From positions 32,001-96,000 of the forward strand of contig CAWCXJ010000004.1 in NCBI GenBank assembly GCA_963799485.1: a DNA stretch of 64,000 nt, in the 5' to 3' direction. The DNA comes from an uncultured Trueperaceae bacterium (GTDB taxonomy: Bacteria > Deinococcota > Deinococci > Deinococcales > Trueperaceae). Below the pieces are notes generated by a model. That model was given only the letters and a program-made list of their open reading frames with translations, searched no databases and was not told the DNA's origin. Position 1 is the stretch's first letter. Every line of letters starts with the position of its first letter. Of this stretch, positions 13,823 to 24,864 are shown piece by piece. Made by a program: the position numbers and the translations under genes.

Positions 13823-15197
13823 GCAACATCTCCTCAGCCGCTCGAAGCTGCCTTTCGACCTGAGCCAGCGCGGTGCCGCCGTAGCTCGAGCGCGCGTTGA
13901 CGACGGTCTCGAGCCTTAAAACTTCAAACACATCATTACCGATAAGTGCCGACACGTTTTGCATCTCTGCCAGACTCAGTGCCTGCAAATCTTTACCCTC
14001 TTGCACCCCGAGCGCGACAAGCTTGCCGACAACTTCGTGCGCTTCACGAAAGGGGAGGCCTTTTTGGGCAAGATAATCAGCGAGGTCGGTGGCGTTCGAG
14101 TAGGCGCGGCCCGCGGCGTGGTACATCCGCGCTTCGTTCACCGTGAGTTTCGGCAACAGGTCGGCGGTTAAACGCAAGCAGACGCGGAGGGTGTCGGCGG
14201 CGTCGAACGCGCCCTCTTTGTCTTCTTGCAGGTCTTTGTTGTAAGCGAGCGGTAGCCCCTTGAGCGTCGTTAAAAGGCCCAGAAGATGCCCGTAAACGCG
14301 CCCGGTTTTGCCACGCGTCAACTCGGACACGTCCGGGTTCTTTTTCTGCGGCATGATGCTCGAGCCCGTGGTATGCGAGTCCGGCAGCGTGACAAAACCG
14401 AACTCTTGCGACGACCACAAGATGAGTTCTTCGGAAAGTCTCGAGAGGTGCATCATCACGAGGCTGGCGGCGCTCAAGAATTCTACGACAAAATCGCGGT
14501 CGGAAACCGCGTCGAGTGAGTTGCGGGCGGGCCGGTCGAAGCCCAAAAGTTCGGCGGTGCGCGCCCGGTCGATAGGGAACCCTGTTCCGGCGAGTGCTCC
14601 GGCCCCGAGCGGCGAGACGTTCAGGCGTTTAAGCGAGTCTTGCAACCTTTCGGCGTCGCGTGAAAACATCTCGAAGTAGGCCAAAAGATGATGCGACAAA
14701 AGCACGGGTTGGGCGACCTGCAGGTGGGTGTAGCCCGGCATGATGACGCCCAGATGTGTGTCGGCAGCCGCTACGAAAGCGGCGCGCAGGTCGTGTAACA
14801 AGCCGACAAGCGCGTGCGTTTCGCCCCTGAGCCAGAGCCGAAAGTCGGTTGCCACCTGGTCGTTGCGGCTGCGGGCGGTGTGGAGCTTGCCGCCGACCGG
14901 CCCGACGCGCTCCGTGAGGGCGGCCTCGAGGTTCATGTGCACGTCTTCGAGTTCGGTGCGCCACGCAAACGTACCGGCTGCGACCTCTTGTTCAAGCTCT
15001 GCTAATCCGGCAACGAGCTGTGCGGCCTCATCTTCGCTCAAAATGCCCGCTTCACCCAACATCATCGCGTGCGCGGTAGACCCCCAAATGTCTTGCAAAG
15101 CCAAGCGTTTGTCGAAACTGACTGAGGCGTTAAACTGCTCGACTAACGTGTCGGTACTCTCGGCGAAGCGTCCGCCCCACATGCGTTTTTGCGTCAC
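13809..15197 (-). CDS. argH: Argininosuccinate lyase
   Basis: MWGGRF, LHTARSRNDQVATD, GSSIMPQKKNPD, YNKDLQEDKE. Confidence 0.98.
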   Translation of the reverse strand: MTQKRMWGGRFAESTDTLVEQFNASVSFDKRLALQDIWGSTAHAMMLGEAGILSEDEAAQLVAGLAELEQEVAAGTFAWRTELEDVHMNLEAALTERVGPVGGKLHTARSRNDQVATDFRLWLRGETHALVGLLHDLRAAFVAAADTHLGVIMPGYTHLQVAQPVLLSHHLLAYFEMFSRDAERLQDSLKRLNVSPLGAGALAGTGFPIDRARTAELLGFDRPARNSLDAVSDRDFVVEFLSAASLVMMHLSRLSEELILWSSQEFGFVTLPDSHTTGSSIMPQKKNPDVSELTRGKTGRVYGHLLGLLTTLKGLPLAYNKDLQEDKEGAFDAADTLRVCLRLTADLLPKLTVNEARMYHAAGRAYSNATDLADYLAQKGLPFREAHEVVGKLVALGVQEGKDLQALSLAEMQNVSALIGNDVFEVLRLETVVNARSSYGGTALAQVERQLRAAEEMLRGDD

Positions 15198-15224
15198 CTG
15201 CAGCCTGCTTTCATCTAGTTCGCA

Positions 15225-15587
15225 TCAGAGCTCATAGGGAAGCCGAATATCGGGTAGCCCGAGCTCGAACCCTTTTGCGTCTCGAGTAACGAACAAACAC
15301 CCCTCCGCCCTAGCGGTGGCGTAGACAACCGCGTCGGGTAGTTTAAGTCGGTAACGTCTTCTTAAAGAGACGCCGAGCGTAGCAACTTCTGTTGATAAAG
15401 CTACCGTCCGAAAGTAATTAAAAAACTTTTGCACCGAGGCTTTATCTTCTTGGTTGACACCGACCATAATCTCCATCCAAGTGATTACGCTGATAAGCGG
15501 CTCGGTGTAAGTCTCGAGCTCCCGGCGCGCTTCGTCAACCCCGTTCAAATGGTCAATCAAGATGTTCGTATCTAATACAGCTTTCAT
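15225..15587 (-). CDS. vapC: PIN-domain toxin (VapC family)
   Basis: MKAVLDTNILID, ISVITWMEIMVG, LKLPDAVVYATA, VTRD. Confidence 0.9.
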   Translation of the reverse strand: MKAVLDTNILIDHLNGVDEARRELETYTEPLISVITWMEIMVGVNQEDKASVQKFFNYFRTVALSTEVATLGVSLRRRYRLKLPDAVVYATARAEGCLFVTRDAKGFELGLPDIRLPYEL

Positions 15588-20034: not shown

Positions 20035-22164
20035 TTACGCTTTGCGGTCGGTTTTCCGGGGCGCACCGCGGCGAAGCTCGAGCCCCCGCTGCTCAGTCCG
20101 GTAGGACGTTCCCTCGATAATCACGGCGACGGTGTTAAGGATATAGATTCCGACAAGAACGAGGTAGAGCGTCAGAGGTGAGGTGGGCTCGCGGCCGAAC
20201 AGCGACAAGGCTGCTGCACCCAAAATGGCCCACGGCACGAGCAGAAAAATCCCCCACATCTCGTCGGCGAGGCCTGTTCCGGGGAAGAGGAGCGCTGACA
20301 GCTGATAAACCCGGCTGCGCGGCGCATCATAGGCGCTACGCGGGCGCGGGACGAACAAAAAGGTGAGGTGAACGAGTGCGACGAGCAAAAATGCGAGTTG
20401 CAAAATGCGCCAGAGGACGAGGCTGAAACCGTAGGGCGGGGCGCTCAGGGCGCGTTGCGGATTGGTAAAAATGTCTGTCAGCGCCGTTTGCCAGCTTCCC
20501 GAAGCGACGCTAAAGTCGTTTGGTGTCGGCAGGGCGAGAGCGGGGCGTGCGGGTCTGTACTCTGCCTGAAAGGGGAGCAGCGCCCGGTCGCCGGTGTTGT
20601 AGCGAGCGGCGGGCAAATTGGGTAGGAGCGCCAGCGCACGCCTGTAAAACGCTTTGTTTTCGGTTAAAACGCCCAGATTGTTAAGTGCGGGTGCGTAATT
20701 CCCGGCACCGCGTAAAAGGGCTTCGGCTTGGGCGTCTCCCAAAATCTGCTGCGCCGTACCCCGGATAAAAGCCGCACGTGGGCCGCTGAGGTCTGTAGTT
20801 GATTCATCCAGATAGGCTTGCGCGGCCCGGTTTGCGAGGGTGCCGGAGCCGATAACCCGCGTGGGTAGTTCGCCGCGTTCGGCCCAGCTGCCGAGCACCG
20901 CCGCGCCGAGAGTCAGCGCCAGCAACAGGAGCAGTACGAGCTTTTCACTCAGCGTGTCGTAATGCAGGGCAAACCAGGGCAAGCGACCGCCGTTACGGTC
21001 GCTGCTATGGTCACTGCGGCGGGCGCGGGCGTATTTGGCGAGCAGCGTCAGGTGCAGCGCAAAAAAGGCGATGAGCAGGGCAGGGACGAGCTTCCAGCCG
21101 GCGCGGGCCAGCGTTAAGCCGAGGCGCTCCAGTACATTTTCGCCGGAGCCTGGCTCGCGGGCGGCGCGGTTTTCCCAGAGCGCGGCCTCATCCGGTGGGC
21201 CGACGCGCCGGAGGAGCGCAGCGTAGCCTCCAAACGCCTCGGTTGCCCCCGGTACGCGCGGGGCAGCGAGCCATAACCGCTCGGCCCAAAATCCGGCGCT
21301 GAGGTCGTCGTTTTTCGCCAGTGCGTTTTGCAGCGGCGCGAGCGGAAAGTTGTAAGCAGCTGCCAGCACCCCATCGGTCAGCAACCTCGGGTCGTACCCT
21401 CTTGCCGCAAAGTCTCCGAGCGCTTTACCGAACGCGTCCTCGGCGAGTGCCCGCTCTTCCTGAGCTGCCAAGACGGTCGCAAGTCCGGCGAGGTCGTAAA
21501 AGGTCGTGGCTACCTGGACGGCTTTTGTAAAGGCCGCCCGCGCGGTTTCCGGGTTGCGTTGGTTGAGTCCTTGCCGCAGGTAAAGCCACGGGTTCGTCGG
21601 GTCTCGGCGTAGCCGCGCGGCTACGTCCGGGACGTTCGCCTCGGCGCGGAGGTAACCGAATGTTTTGGGGTCGATACCAAACCTGACCGGCTCCTGCAGC
21701 GCGCCGCCCCGCAGGGTAAAACGCTCTAAAAGTGTGTCCGAATGCCGTACGATAATTCCTGTAGTCTCGTCGTCAACACGTTCTAGACGGGCAACCGGCC
21801 CGGAGACGGTAAAGCGTTCCAGAATCGTTCCGGTTTGCGGCTCCAGCTCAAGCACACTGTTCCCGTGCCCGAGATAAAGTTGCGGTTCGGCTCCCGCCGT
21901 CTGCTGAAGGAAAGATTGTGACGTGGAACCGCTCCCTTCGGGAAACGTCAGTGTCCAGAGCTGCTCGTCGCCTTGGGTCGCGCTGACGCCGTTGACCGTG
22001 CGCGCCACCTGGAGCGTAGCTGTTGCGGACGGTTCTGCTGCCGGCGTCATAGTTCTGAGTTGTACGCTCTGTGCGTGTGTGTAGCCGAGGAGCACACAGC
22101 AGGTCATTACCAAGCTCGCGGATCGTCGCCACAGTAACGAGGTCGGCTGGAAGATGAGCTGCAT
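20035..22164 (-). CDS. Large hypothetical membrane protein with TPR-like helices
   Basis: 709-aa ORF, signal peptide, several TM segments, ALNNLGV / ARYN TPR-like motifs; TATAAT 6 nt before ATG. Confidence 0.7.
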   Translation of the reverse strand: MQLIFQPTSLLWRRSASLVMTCCVLLGYTHAQSVQLRTMTPAAEPSATATLQVARTVNGVSATQGDEQLWTLTFPEGSGSTSQSFLQQTAGAEPQLYLGHGNSVLELEPQTGTILERFTVSGPVARLERVDDETTGIIVRHSDTLLERFTLRGGALQEPVRFGIDPKTFGYLRAEANVPDVAARLRRDPTNPWLYLRQGLNQRNPETARAAFTKAVQVATTFYDLAGLATVLAAQEERALAEDAFGKALGDFAARGYDPRLLTDGVLAAAYNFPLAPLQNALAKNDDLSAGFWAERLWLAAPRVPGATEAFGGYAALLRRVGPPDEAALWENRAAREPGSGENVLERLGLTLARAGWKLVPALLIAFFALHLTLLAKYARARRSDHSSDRNGGRLPWFALHYDTLSEKLVLLLLLALTLGAAVLGSWAERGELPTRVIGSGTLANRAAQAYLDESTTDLSGPRAAFIRGTAQQILGDAQAEALLRGAGNYAPALNNLGVLTENKAFYRRALALLPNLPAARYNTGDRALLPFQAEYRPARPALALPTPNDFSVASGSWQTALTDIFTNPQRALSAPPYGFSLVLWRILQLAFLLVALVHLTFLFVPRPRSAYDAPRSRVYQLSALLFPGTGLADEMWGIFLLVPWAILGAAALSLFGREPTSPLTLYLVLVGIYILNTVAVIIEGTSYRTEQRGLELRRGAPRKTDRKA

Positions 22165-22367
22165 AGCTGTATTATATGCATCCGATTACGTGCACCCGTT
22201 TTAGAGCTTGAACTTCAGGGTGAGGGGTAGGTAGAGCTTTTCGGCCTCGAGCCCCGTCCAGCCAATAAAAGGGTGGCGTAAGGTTGTAGTATTTTCCACG
22301 CACCACGCGCGCAAAAGTAAAAAAGCGTGCCCTTCCCGGGGGCTATGTTCCCGTTATACTAGGTTTT

Positions 22368-23063
22368 GTGGAGATTATTCCCTGGGCCGCTCTCGCCGCA
22401 CCCTTTTCGGCTGCGGACTTATGCTGGCGCGTCGTCAAGCTTTCGCCCGATCGCCTGAGCGCGCAGGTGCGCCCGCAACTCCGGGCAGAGGCGGTCAATG
22501 CCCGGTTTAACGCGGTTCTTGGCGTCGGCGGCTGGTCGCAGAGTTTCGCCGCGCTCGGTGAACGCGGGCTGGTTTGCACGCTCGGCATTGCGAGCGTTTC
22601 CAAAGCTGCGGTCGCACCCTACACCGCCGAAACCGACCTGAACGGCACCGCTGAAGACGCCCTTGCCGCTGCTGCCATGCTCTTCGGCCTGCGTCCGGCA
22701 GTTGTACTAGACGAGCTGCCGTGGGTCGACTACGACCCCGAGCAGCAGCAGCCCCTTTACGAACCCAATCTAGCTGGTGCAGAAGAGGTCGATGCGGCTT
22801 CGGTTACAACCCGGCCCGAACCGGCGCAACCCACGGCCCAGCCAGCCTCCCCAGCGGAAGCCCAGCCCGCCGCTCAACCTGCCGCCAAATCTGCTGGTCA
22901 GCAAGCCATCGACAAGCTCGTCGACCGCCTCAAAGCTGACGGCAAGGGGCTCGGTGCGGCAAAGCTGCTTAACGCCTACGGAGGCTACGGGAGTGACCCG
23001 AACGCGGCCAGAGAACTCTACGCCAAACTCAGAGAATTGCTGCGCGAGGGTTCTGCACCGTGA
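22368..23063 (+). CDS. Rad52/Rad22-family ssDNA-binding protein (DdrA paralog)
   Basis: LAAPF....WRV...V..R...VLG..GWS pattern as in DdrA; P/A/Q-rich linker; helical C-terminal domain. Confidence 0.7.
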   Translation: MEIIPWAALAAPFSAADLCWRVVKLSPDRLSAQVRPQLRAEAVNARFNAVLGVGGWSQSFAALGERGLVCTLGIASVSKAAVAPYTAETDLNGTAEDALAAAAMLFGLRPAVVLDELPWVDYDPEQQQPLYEPNLAGAEEVDAASVTTRPEPAQPTAQPASPAEAQPAAQPAAKSAGQQAIDKLVDRLKADGKGLGAAKLLNAYGGYGSDPNAARELYAKLRELLREGSAP

Positions 23064-23136
23064 GACGTCCCATGAAAGAAGTACTGTGAGAAAAGTACCG
23101 AGGAAAGTACTGTGAGCGAAACCCTGTGAGAGCAGG

Positions 23137-23916
23137 ATGACGGGCGCACACGACGCCGCACCGGGAACACACAGGATTCTCGCGCTCGGCGATGTTCACG
23201 GGCAGTGGGCCGAGCTGTGGGGTGCGCTTCGGGCAGCAGGTATGGCAAGCGACGTAGGCGAACCGACTGTGCCGGTTTTGGAAAACGCTGCCGAAATCAT
23301 CTTGATCGGCGACCTGGTGCATTACAAAGACGCGGCAAGTTACGCTTACGCGGTCGGTGAAGAAGTTTTCGACGCGGGCAACCCGAAGCAGCTGCGGCGG
23401 GCAGCCAAGGCGCAAATCCGCGAACTCTACCGTTTTAAGGATTACATGGAACGCGCCGGGGGTTGCGTCAGCGTGATTTTGGGCAACCACGATGAGGCGG
23501 CCCTGACGCACGAATATACCCTGGCACTGCGCGGCGGCTTGGAGCATAACGAATTCGACCCTGCCAAGGGCGGGTTGCCCCTCCCCGACGATTTAAGGGC
23601 GTGGATGGCAAGTTTTCCCCGTCAGAAAATCCTCGGCAATATTCAGTTTGCCCACGCCGGGCCGCTACCGGGGATGCAGTACTACGACGACTTCTTTTAT
23701 CATGACCCCGATACCAAGGGGTGGTGGCGTGACAAACCCGAGCTGGCGCAACAGTCGGGTTACCGTTTCGGGGTTTACGGGCACACGGTTATGTCTGAAG
23801 GCATTTTGCTCGATAAAGCGAACATGTTTGCGATGGTCGACGCGCTCGCCAAACGGCAATACCTCGAGCTCCAGCTCCAGGGCGGCGACCTCTACGCTGA
23901 AATTAAGACCTTCTAG
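23137..23916 (+). CDS. Calcineurin-like metallophosphoesterase
   Basis: GDVHG, GDLVH, GNHD, HAG and GHT motifs. Confidence 0.88.
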   Translation: MTGAHDAAPGTHRILALGDVHGQWAELWGALRAAGMASDVGEPTVPVLENAAEIILIGDLVHYKDAASYAYAVGEEVFDAGNPKQLRRAAKAQIRELYRFKDYMERAGGCVSVILGNHDEAALTHEYTLALRGGLEHNEFDPAKGGLPLPDDLRAWMASFPRQKILGNIQFAHAGPLPGMQYYDDFFYHDPDTKGWWRDKPELAQQSGYRFGVYGHTVMSEGILLDKANMFAMVDALAKRQYLELQLQGGDLYAEIKTF

Positions 23917-23917
23917 C

Positions 23918-24454
23918 GTGCCGGGCAGGGTTTCGGCAGTTAGTCTCAGCGCAGCCCACACATTTAGTAAAGCACCGGCATCGGTTATTAAACTCGTCGC
24001 CGGACTCGGCGTCTCCGGCGACGCACACGCAGGTCAGGTGGTACAACACCGTTCGCGTGTTCGCGCCGATCCTACTCAGCCCAATTTACGGCAAGTTCAT
24101 CTAATCCACGAAGAGCTTTTTGCGATGTTGGCGTACAAAGGCTCTGCCGTAAAGCCTGGAGAACTCGGCGAAAACATCACCACAAAAAGGCTTTATCTGC
24201 CAGCGCTGCCGACTGGGACGCGGTTACATATCGGTGAGGCGGTTCTCGAGGTTACCGGCCTCCGAAACCCGTGCGCGCAGATAGACGGGTTTCAAAAGGG
24301 ATTACTGGGAGCTGTTTTAGCTTGCAACGCCGAAGGTAAGTTCCGCAAAGCCGGAATTATGAGCGTCGTGCTGGCGGGTGGCGAAGTAAGCCCGGGGGAC
24401 GACATCGGGCTCGAGCTGCCGCCGGAACCGTGGGCAAAGCTGAAGCGGGTTTAG
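23918..24454 (+). CDS. MOSC domain protein
   Basis: GDAHAG, NLRQVHLI, GENITT, TGLRNPC; start reassigned to GTG 23918. Confidence 0.88.
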   Translation: MPGRVSAVSLSAAHTFSKAPASVIKLVAGLGVSGDAHAGQVVQHRSRVRADPTQPNLRQVHLIHEELFAMLAYKGSAVKPGELGENITTKRLYLPALPTGTRLHIGEAVLEVTGLRNPCAQIDGFQKGLLGAVLACNAEGKFRKAGIMSVVLAGGEVSPGDDIGLELPPEPWAKLKRV

Positions 24455-24864
24455 CTCGCGGTTTTGAGCGTGCGTACACCGCGTAGAGGCCACTGCAGGG
24501 GTTGCTGCCCGGATTCTTGTACGTAGTAAAATAGTGCGGACTTCGCTTAATTCGTTCATACGAACAAACAAGCCGAGGCTAGCGAACGGGAATGATACGG
24601 AGGTTCTTAATACCGTAAACGAACCTTGGGGTCTCCACGCCTTGACCAACCGGTTTGTATCCGAAGATAGGCTTTTACGAGTAATTCGTACCGGACTATA
24701 AAACTCTGTTTGTCGCCTGTGTATTTTGTGTCGTATACTGGCCCCAGTGCCTACGCGAAGGATGAAGTTTCCTTTACATAACCCTGGTTTAGTGCCGGGG
24801 TTTCGCCTGCTAGGATGCGCCCTATGATGTGCGTTTCCCCTCTTTTCAGATTCTCAGGTGCTAG

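Follow-up and report, generated by a model that had tools for sequence, protein, structure and literature searches.

Translational coupling of adjacent genes through overlapping stop and start codons is well documented in prokaryotes, with termination-reinitiation at ATGA and TGATG overlaps now an established mechanism (Huber et al. 2019, PMC6728339). Reporter constructs have indicated that the coupling is almost abolished once the two genes are separated by gaps of about 20 nucleotides (nt) (Huber et al. 2023, PMC10666635). According to one review (PMC12548453), short open reading frames (ORFs) can "deliver" ribosomes to a downstream gene with which they are coupled, and mycobacterial interspersed repetitive units (MIRUs; Supply et al. 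1997, as summarized there) enter at start codons and leave an internal ORF coupled at -4 to the gene that follows. Such units, of 77 and 53 bp, are found in tandem between senX3 and regX3 (PMC4213456). Here we describe a gene junction in a 64,000-nt stretch of DNA from an uncultured Trueperaceae bacterium (assembly GCA_963799485.1, contig CAWCXJ010000004.1, positions 32,001 to 96,000; hereafter the window) at which a ddrA-like gene and a calcineurin-like metallophosphoesterase (PE) gene are separated by a spacer that four successive micro-ORFs cross from stop to start. Our search of a library of open-access papers turned up neither a multi-link relay nor tandem repeats that hold small ORFs whose stops overlap. 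Comparison with the orthologous junctions of related bacteria suggests that frames bridging this spacer are likely to be translated and that selection acts on their reading frame.

The anatomy of the junction is read directly from the sequence, and all of its features lie on the + strand. The ddrA-like gene (22368-23063, 231 amino acids (aa)) ends in a TGA at 23061-23063 in the context GTGA, and the GTG at 23060, which overlaps this stop by 4 nt, opens micro-ORF 1 (23060-23089, encoding MRRPMKEVL). The stop of micro-ORF 1 in turn overlaps the GTG at 23086 of micro-ORF 2 (23086-23115, MRKVPRKVL), whose stop overlaps the GTG at 23112 of micro-ORF 3 (23112-23129, MSETL), with GAGGAAAG upstream of this third start. 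The stop of micro-ORF 3 overlaps the GTG at 23126 of micro-ORF 4 (23126-23140, MRAG), and the TGA of the latter overlaps the ATG of the PE gene (23137-23916, 259 aa). The 73-nt spacer (23064-23136) is thus traversed by five GTGA or ATGA joints (23060-63, 23086-89, 23112-15, 23126-29 and 23137-40), each a 4-nt overlap of stop and start. Successive starts are 26, 26, 14 and 11 nt apart, all 2 mod 3, which bears out both the coordinates and the steps of the chain proposed in an earlier, sequence-only reading of this DNA. The PE frame is open only from 23116, and ATG 23137 is the sole ATG, GTG or TTG within it, making this codon the only possible start of the PE gene.

The sequence-only reading would have been contradicted by related spacers that vary without regard to frame, and here the outcome favored it: across 15 genus groups the start-to-start distances vary from 14 to 122 nt, always in steps of three. 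We collected 138 junction loci (L001-L030 and L039-L146) and could classify 120 of them, the remainder being 17 in which this query detected no upstream ddrA-like gene and one that was unreadable (L145). We scored a chain when each start codon shared 4 nt or 1 nt with the preceding stop and the last frame reached an in-frame PE start located before the conserved RILALGD block. By this rule the two genes overlap directly at 43 loci, are joined by one bridging micro-ORF overlapping at both ends at 48, by two links at 2 (L047 and L056, from one genus) and by four links in the window only. At 23 loci there is no start on the upstream stop, at one the chain is broken after one link, and at two the bridging frame runs over the PE start. 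Nine further metagenome loci comprised one without the upstream gene, four with direct overlaps, three with one link and one with a broken chain.

Conservation of the frame among these relatives is a matter of direct observation. Among the 53 spacer-bearing loci with ATGA, GTGA or TTGA at the upstream stop, 50 complete the chain (the exceptions are L023, L096 and L108), against the third or half that would do so by chance were the frame free. The one-link bridges span start-to-start distances of 14, 17, 20, 23, 26, 29, 32, 35, 38, 41, 47, 71 and 83 nt, with 122 nt at L010 and 74 nt at the metagenomic locus L147, and every one of these distances is 2 mod 3. The landing site of the relays is equally regular: of the 51 relay loci, 44 reach the PE gene at a conserved start that precedes the aligned RILALGD block by two codons, the exceptions including the window's own genus, in which the PE has 9-17 extra residues. 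The start on the upstream stop is itself retained: where a spacer is present, 52 of 61 TGA stops read ATGA or GTGA, compared with 261 of 832 in the non-overlapping genes of the window genome. Relay forms occur in 15 genus groups belonging to two families, and several lengths can be found within single genera. Because 50 of 53 bridges end on the TGA at the PE start across these 15 groups, the comparison leaves frame-preserving selection at the ddrA-like/PE junction well supported. An origin of the bridge as a frameshifted remnant of the ddrA-like C-terminus was considered and rejected, since at direct and spacer-bearing loci alike the upstream protein remains homologous up to the last 0-6 residues before its stop.

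What the bridges encode shows no comparable constancy. Their peptides are conserved neither in sequence nor in length, even within a genus, and range from 2 to 41 codons; among close relatives of the window alone they include MNLVGTMNLKVRQ (L002), MRPVLGLVAHAQTCLE (L003), MKAPVKLP (L004) and the product of a 25-codon ORF (L147). Were the micro-ORFs to encode small peptides with a function, or a leader or stalling peptide controlling the PE gene, the frames would indeed be expected to persist as frames, which they do. The free variation in sequence and length speaks against such a role, and the relatives' bridge ORFs revealed no conserved peptide or stalling motif of the kind by which leader or attenuator upstream ORFs are recognized. 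We therefore regard a peptide function as extremely improbable. The peptides themselves would have no function, and only the frames would matter.

How, then, might a frame without a product be of use? We lean, with some reserve, toward a ribosome relay by termination-reinitiation across the spacer. In this scheme, ribosomes finishing the ddrA-like gene would restart at GTG 23060, aided by an SD-like (Shine-Dalgarno-like) GAGGG in the 3' end of that gene (23046-23050, 10 nt before the GTG). They would then read a very short frame and terminate at a TGA shared with the start that follows, four times over, until the final stop placed them on the ATG of the PE gene. Translation of the ddrA-like and PE genes would in this way stay coupled over a 73-nt gap that would otherwise uncouple them. 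We infer that the bridge frames are translated in this manner and that the PE gene depends on the bridge.

The pattern of frame conservation would also be expected if the bridge served only to limit damage. When a spacer arises, the former PE start, orphaned together with its SD, may go on capturing ribosomes, and the frame they read would need only to end before or on the new PE start, so as not to cross it in another register. The PE gene would then initiate from its own SD, and the relay would pass on few or no ribosomes. To compare initiation signals, we scored SD pairing as the duplex formed with the 3' tail of the genome's own 16S rRNA, for which called gene starts have a median of -5.4 kcal/mol and random sites one of -3.7 kcal/mol. 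The values in the window are -7.1 for micro-ORF 1, -1.6 for micro-ORF 2, -5.9 for micro-ORF 3, -3.9 for micro-ORF 4 and -4.5 kcal/mol for the PE ATG. Among relatives, the median at the PE start is -7.6 for direct overlaps, -6.8 for relayed loci and -6.6 for unchained ones, so that PE starts at the end of a relay have SDs equal to those that are uncoupled, as damage limitation would have it. It also fits that GGAGG-like runs often lie 6-10 nt before the PE start in the spacers, that the TGA ending the bridge is in any case fixed by the first two PE codons (RTG ATC or RTG ACG), and that 26 of the 120 loci do without a chain. Other features of the data fit this explanation poorly. The PE SD in the window is weak, close to the random median. 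Beyond the first stop at 23087-23089 no register would be needed, yet three further joints are in register. Finally, an in-frame fusion should be equally harmless, given that the PE of this genus tolerates 9-17 extra N-terminal residues, yet read-through as an in-frame N-terminal PE extension is seen at only one or two loci (L046 and perhaps L135) as against 51 relays. It is because of the weak PE SD in the window, the register of all its joints and the rarity of in-frame fusion that we favor the relay over damage limitation, which we consider unlikely, if still worth taking seriously.

The locus L046 (genome G090) illustrates what such a fusion looks like. Its spacer measures 21 nt, compared with the 20-nt one-link bridge of eight relatives in its genus, and its usual PE start is a CTG. 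The old start reads straight into the PE gene to give a 7-codon N-terminal extension, an in-frame alternative to the relay.

Several considerations weigh against a relay as we have drawn it. The conservation of frame is predicted equally well by damage limitation. The related genomes are not independent of one another, and counts of loci accordingly overstate independence. A maximum-likelihood tree of the ddrA-like protein (117 rows) placed at least 24 distance changes among relay loci and 25 changes of junction state, but it was a quick tree inferred from a short protein; from the many different lengths, at least some 15 separate changes of length that preserved the frame can be counted. There is no chain at all in 26 of the 120 classified loci. 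With SDs at relayed PE starts as good as those at unchained ones, initiation of the PE gene on its own is possible. Micro-ORF 2 is almost devoid of SD-like pairing, and four successive reinitiations may in any event pass few ribosomes on. Moreover, the four-link chain is by itself weak evidence, and across the genome chains of at least three links occur 4 times in the true frame, compared with 3 and 2 times in frame-shifted controls.

These last points rest on two estimates of chance. In 20,000 dinucleotide-preserving shuffles of 23064-23136 with the flanks held fixed, 1,922 gave a complete one-link chain, 234 (1.2%) a four-link chain and 17,844 none, so that some complete chain appears in 10.8% of cases. 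A spacer of this length can by arithmetic accommodate 1, 4 or 7 links and no other number, because n links require 2n = 2 mod 3. The odds of about 1 in 81 put forward in the sequence-only reading are therefore close for four links given the length (about 1 in 85), but any complete chain is expected about once in 9. For the genome as a whole (59% G+C), genes were taken from our own crude codon log-likelihood caller, which yielded 3,248 of them. Its 1,950 same-strand neighbor pairs include 381 direct overlaps, and 52, 16, 2 and 2 pairs are joined by 1, 2, 3 and 4 links, respectively. When the 278 spacer pairs with a start codon on the upstream stop were considered, 72 formed full relays compared with 18 and 29 in controls shifted by 1 and 2 nt. 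One-link relays outnumber frames that run over the next start by about 2 to 1 (52 versus 25) in what is an exploratory comparison dependent on the crude gene caller. Multi-link chains are not enriched as a class in this genome.

The window's genus offers some insight into where the four links came from. Four relatives of the same genus have a single-ORF bridge, of 42 nt in L002, 51 nt in L003, 27 nt in L004 and 78 nt in L147, and two others have lost the TGA overlap (L005 and L007); for the window's own species we found a single genome, the sole member of the 100% cluster P0001. The L147 spacer is 74 nt from start to start, against 77 nt in the window, and its 3' part can be aligned with that of the window. 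By pairwise comparison this partial 3' homology is confined to L147, a MAFFT alignment of the four same-genus spacers having been uninformative. Because the L147 spacer is nearly equal in length and alignable in its 3' part, the long spacer is, as far as these alignments indicate, probably older than the four-link state. The ancestral junction would have been a direct RTGA overlap, many lineages would then have gained a spacer crossed by one bridging frame, and in the window genome the bridge would have been split into four links by tandem copies of a unit of about 14 nt carrying a GTGA joint. We infer this order of events, from direct overlap through bridge to four links, and our best reading of the four-link form is that it is a lineage-specific variant that arose from these tandem copies.

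The spacer does carry a repeat of the required kind. Tandem Repeats Finder reports a degenerate array with a 12-14-nt unit in 2.9 copies and 73% matches at 23079-23116 (+ strand), and AAGTACTGTGAG is present in two exact copies 26 nt apart. CTGTGAG joints are present in the outer copies but missing from the middle one, which at 12 rather than 14 nt is 2 nt shorter and so keeps the step at 26 nt (2 mod 3) and not 28. The proposal that the spacer was built from duplications of the junction holds in part. The broader rule attached to it, that duplications persist only when coupling is preserved, fails in this genome, where tandem repeats in same-strand spacers have periods of 0, 1 and 2 mod 3 in 16, 32 and 22 cases (133, 133 and 163 for all intergenic repeats), with no excess of 2 mod 3.

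Given such numbers, the extra links might be no more than a neutral by-product, a single bridge having been broken up by slippage of the repeat of about 14 nt into pieces that align by luck and that have no additional role or are already decaying. Same-strand spacers of this genome often contain tandem repeats of 13-16 nt, and roughly one in three has a period of 2 mod 3, which would bring three added links within reach at about 1 in 20, and shuffling alone produces four links in 1.2% of trials. Four links occur at one of the 120 classified loci, the close relatives L002, L003, L004 and L147 have one, and the genome holds no excess of multi-link chains. Against luck stands the joint-less middle copy, whose 12 nt in place of 14 keep the step at 26 rather than 28. 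The genome also has other tandem junction copies that form chains (with 17-, 32- and 38-nt units), and the two-link loci L047 and L056 of another genus share the design. On balance, we think a purely neutral origin of the added links is decidedly unlikely. A more ambitious proposal, put forward tentatively and with clear doubts of our own, is that link number acts as a selectable dial: if each step passes on a fraction of the ribosomes, gain or loss of a unit of about 14 nt would reset the ratio of PE to Rad52-like protein stepwise. More generally, frame-conserved, peptide-free bridge ORFs might then form a regular class of cis-translational element that arises whenever overlapping junctions are pushed apart.

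Related arrangements can be seen elsewhere. Periods of 14, 16 and 13 nt account for 25 of the 38 arrays with a score of at least 45 in same-strand intergenic spacers of this genome, arrays of 13-16 nt being the commonest kind. Outside the window, tandem copies of stop/start junctions form full relays at four sites (coordinates on the named strand), all with periods of 2 mod 3: three 17-nt units on contig C12 (+, stop end 182895); three links with steps of 14, 14 and 11 nt starting RTGAGAC on C8 (-, 236712); two perfect 32-nt units on C5 (+, 175121); and two 38-nt units on C13 (-, 283947). A second relay lies within the window itself at 15195-15227 on the - strand, where micro-ORFs of 15 and 21 nt with TGATG and ATGA overlaps join two called genes. 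Among the related junctions, the spacer of about 290 nt upstream of the PE gene at L027 (G012) is filled by two different tandem arrays with units of about 14 and 15 nt, and the spacer at L015 (G021) has two 17-nt copies; neither contains a strict chain.

A repeat of this sort could instead be a regulatory site at the level of DNA or RNA, whether an operator, an internal promoter or a small RNA. AAGTAC motifs recur in the window spacer and AGTACT is a palindrome, and the MIRU spacer between senX3 and regX3 is reported to have promoter activity (PMC4213456). Our data nevertheless make such a site very improbable. No terminator-like and no + strand promoter-like site was found in 22100-24600. 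The spacer has no Rfam match, which led us to reject a known RNA family, and no stable fold, its predicted structure being weaker than that of shuffled sequences (z +1.06). Nor is the motif conserved in relatives, and within the genome it is restricted to this locus, the only exact matches to the repeat's 12-mer being the two in the spacer. An 81-nt query covering the spacer found no other match in the genome above 14 nt. The long spacers of L010 and L099 are likewise single-copy in their own genomes (G022 and G131), and an origin from a mobile element is ruled out for the window and these two relatives by the uniqueness of their spacers.

Turning to the genes on either side of the spacer, the phosphoesterase label proposed from the sequence alone is confirmed by a match to PF00149 (Metallophos, E 2.6e-9), and the ddrA-like label has only indirect backing. 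The 231-aa protein itself matches neither Pfam nor NCBIfam and has no relative of solved structure detectable by sequence, and its homologues are almost all unnamed. One homologue, P0094, with 42% identity to it, matches PF04098 (Rad52_Rad22, E 2e-5). The DdrA protein known from Deinococcus is reported to belong to the Rad52 family of annealing proteins and to have a paralogue as well as a homologue in Thermus (PMC1978522). The label thus appears fair but unproven, resting as it does on this indirect resemblance. A PE orthologue is present in 116 of the 128 genomes of the family, a tally in which the unpublished genome G128 is included, and also in sister families of the order. Across the whole order, a homologue of Rad52-like annealing proteins stays paired with a metallophosphoesterase, by overlap or by relay, which recalls annealase-plus-nuclease recombination modules. 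Downstream, a MOSC-domain gene (23918-24454, + strand; PF03473, E 1.5e-13) begins with a GTG one base after the TAG stop of the PE gene. The ddrA-like, PE and MOSC genes probably form one three-gene operon. What bears on whether the ddrA-like and PE genes may share a transcript is the lack of terminator-like and + strand promoter-like sites described above and a gene order in which a ddrA-like homologue precedes the PE gene at 121 of the 138 loci. The antisense ORFs gave no family match; one of them, of 172 aa (23029-23547), is without a Pfam hit and faces a conserved gene, and it was treated as a shadow frame.

An attractive aspect of the ddrA-like/PE junction is that it may show how evolution gets round the coupling limit of about 20 nt reported for reporter constructs (PMC10666635). 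One orthologous junction followed over 15 genus groups, either overlapped or bridged by a frame without a conserved peptide whose length changes only in threes, provides unusually clean comparative evidence for bridges that are translated and selected. The four-link window and its one- and two-link relatives also make up a natural series from which the cost of each reinitiation step could be learned. There is a practical lesson as well: gene callers ignore bridge frames and would therefore miss a spacer that had gained or lost 1 nt through an assembly error.

Set beside the systems with which we began, the locus combines familiar parts in a different arrangement. All five joints in the window are canonical 4-nt overlaps, and the direct junction that we take to be ancestral survives at 43 of the 120 loci, as in ATGA/TGATG coupling, but the cases in those reports involve two real genes (PMC6728339, PMC10666635), whereas here the coupling would run through one to four frames of 4-41 codons without a conserved product. 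Like the minigene of the axe-txe toxin-antitoxin operon, the micro-ORFs are very short, lie within an operon and would influence translation downstream; that minigene belongs to a different system and, as described, is a single one that forms no chain (PMC8708949). With the short upstream ORFs that deliver ribosomes, as the review portrays them (PMC12548453), the bridges would share a sole role, that of bringing a ribosome to the next start, although in the window the ribosomes would come from the preceding gene instead of initiating de novo on a leader, and the short ORFs stand in series. The closest likeness is to the ORFs of MIRUs (PMC12548453, PMC4213456), which as described there are also intergenic units within operons, carry an ORF coupled at -4 to the next gene and can occur in tandem, their 77- and 53-bp lengths being 2 mod 3 as are the window steps of 26, 14 and 11 nt. 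But MIRUs are depicted in these sources as dispersed and apparently mobile, whereas the spacers of the window, L010 and L099 are unique in their genomes and the bridge arises here without a mobile element. The units in the window are moreover only 11-26 nt long, and the bridge has been kept at one orthologous junction across an entire order in sequences that are otherwise unrelated.

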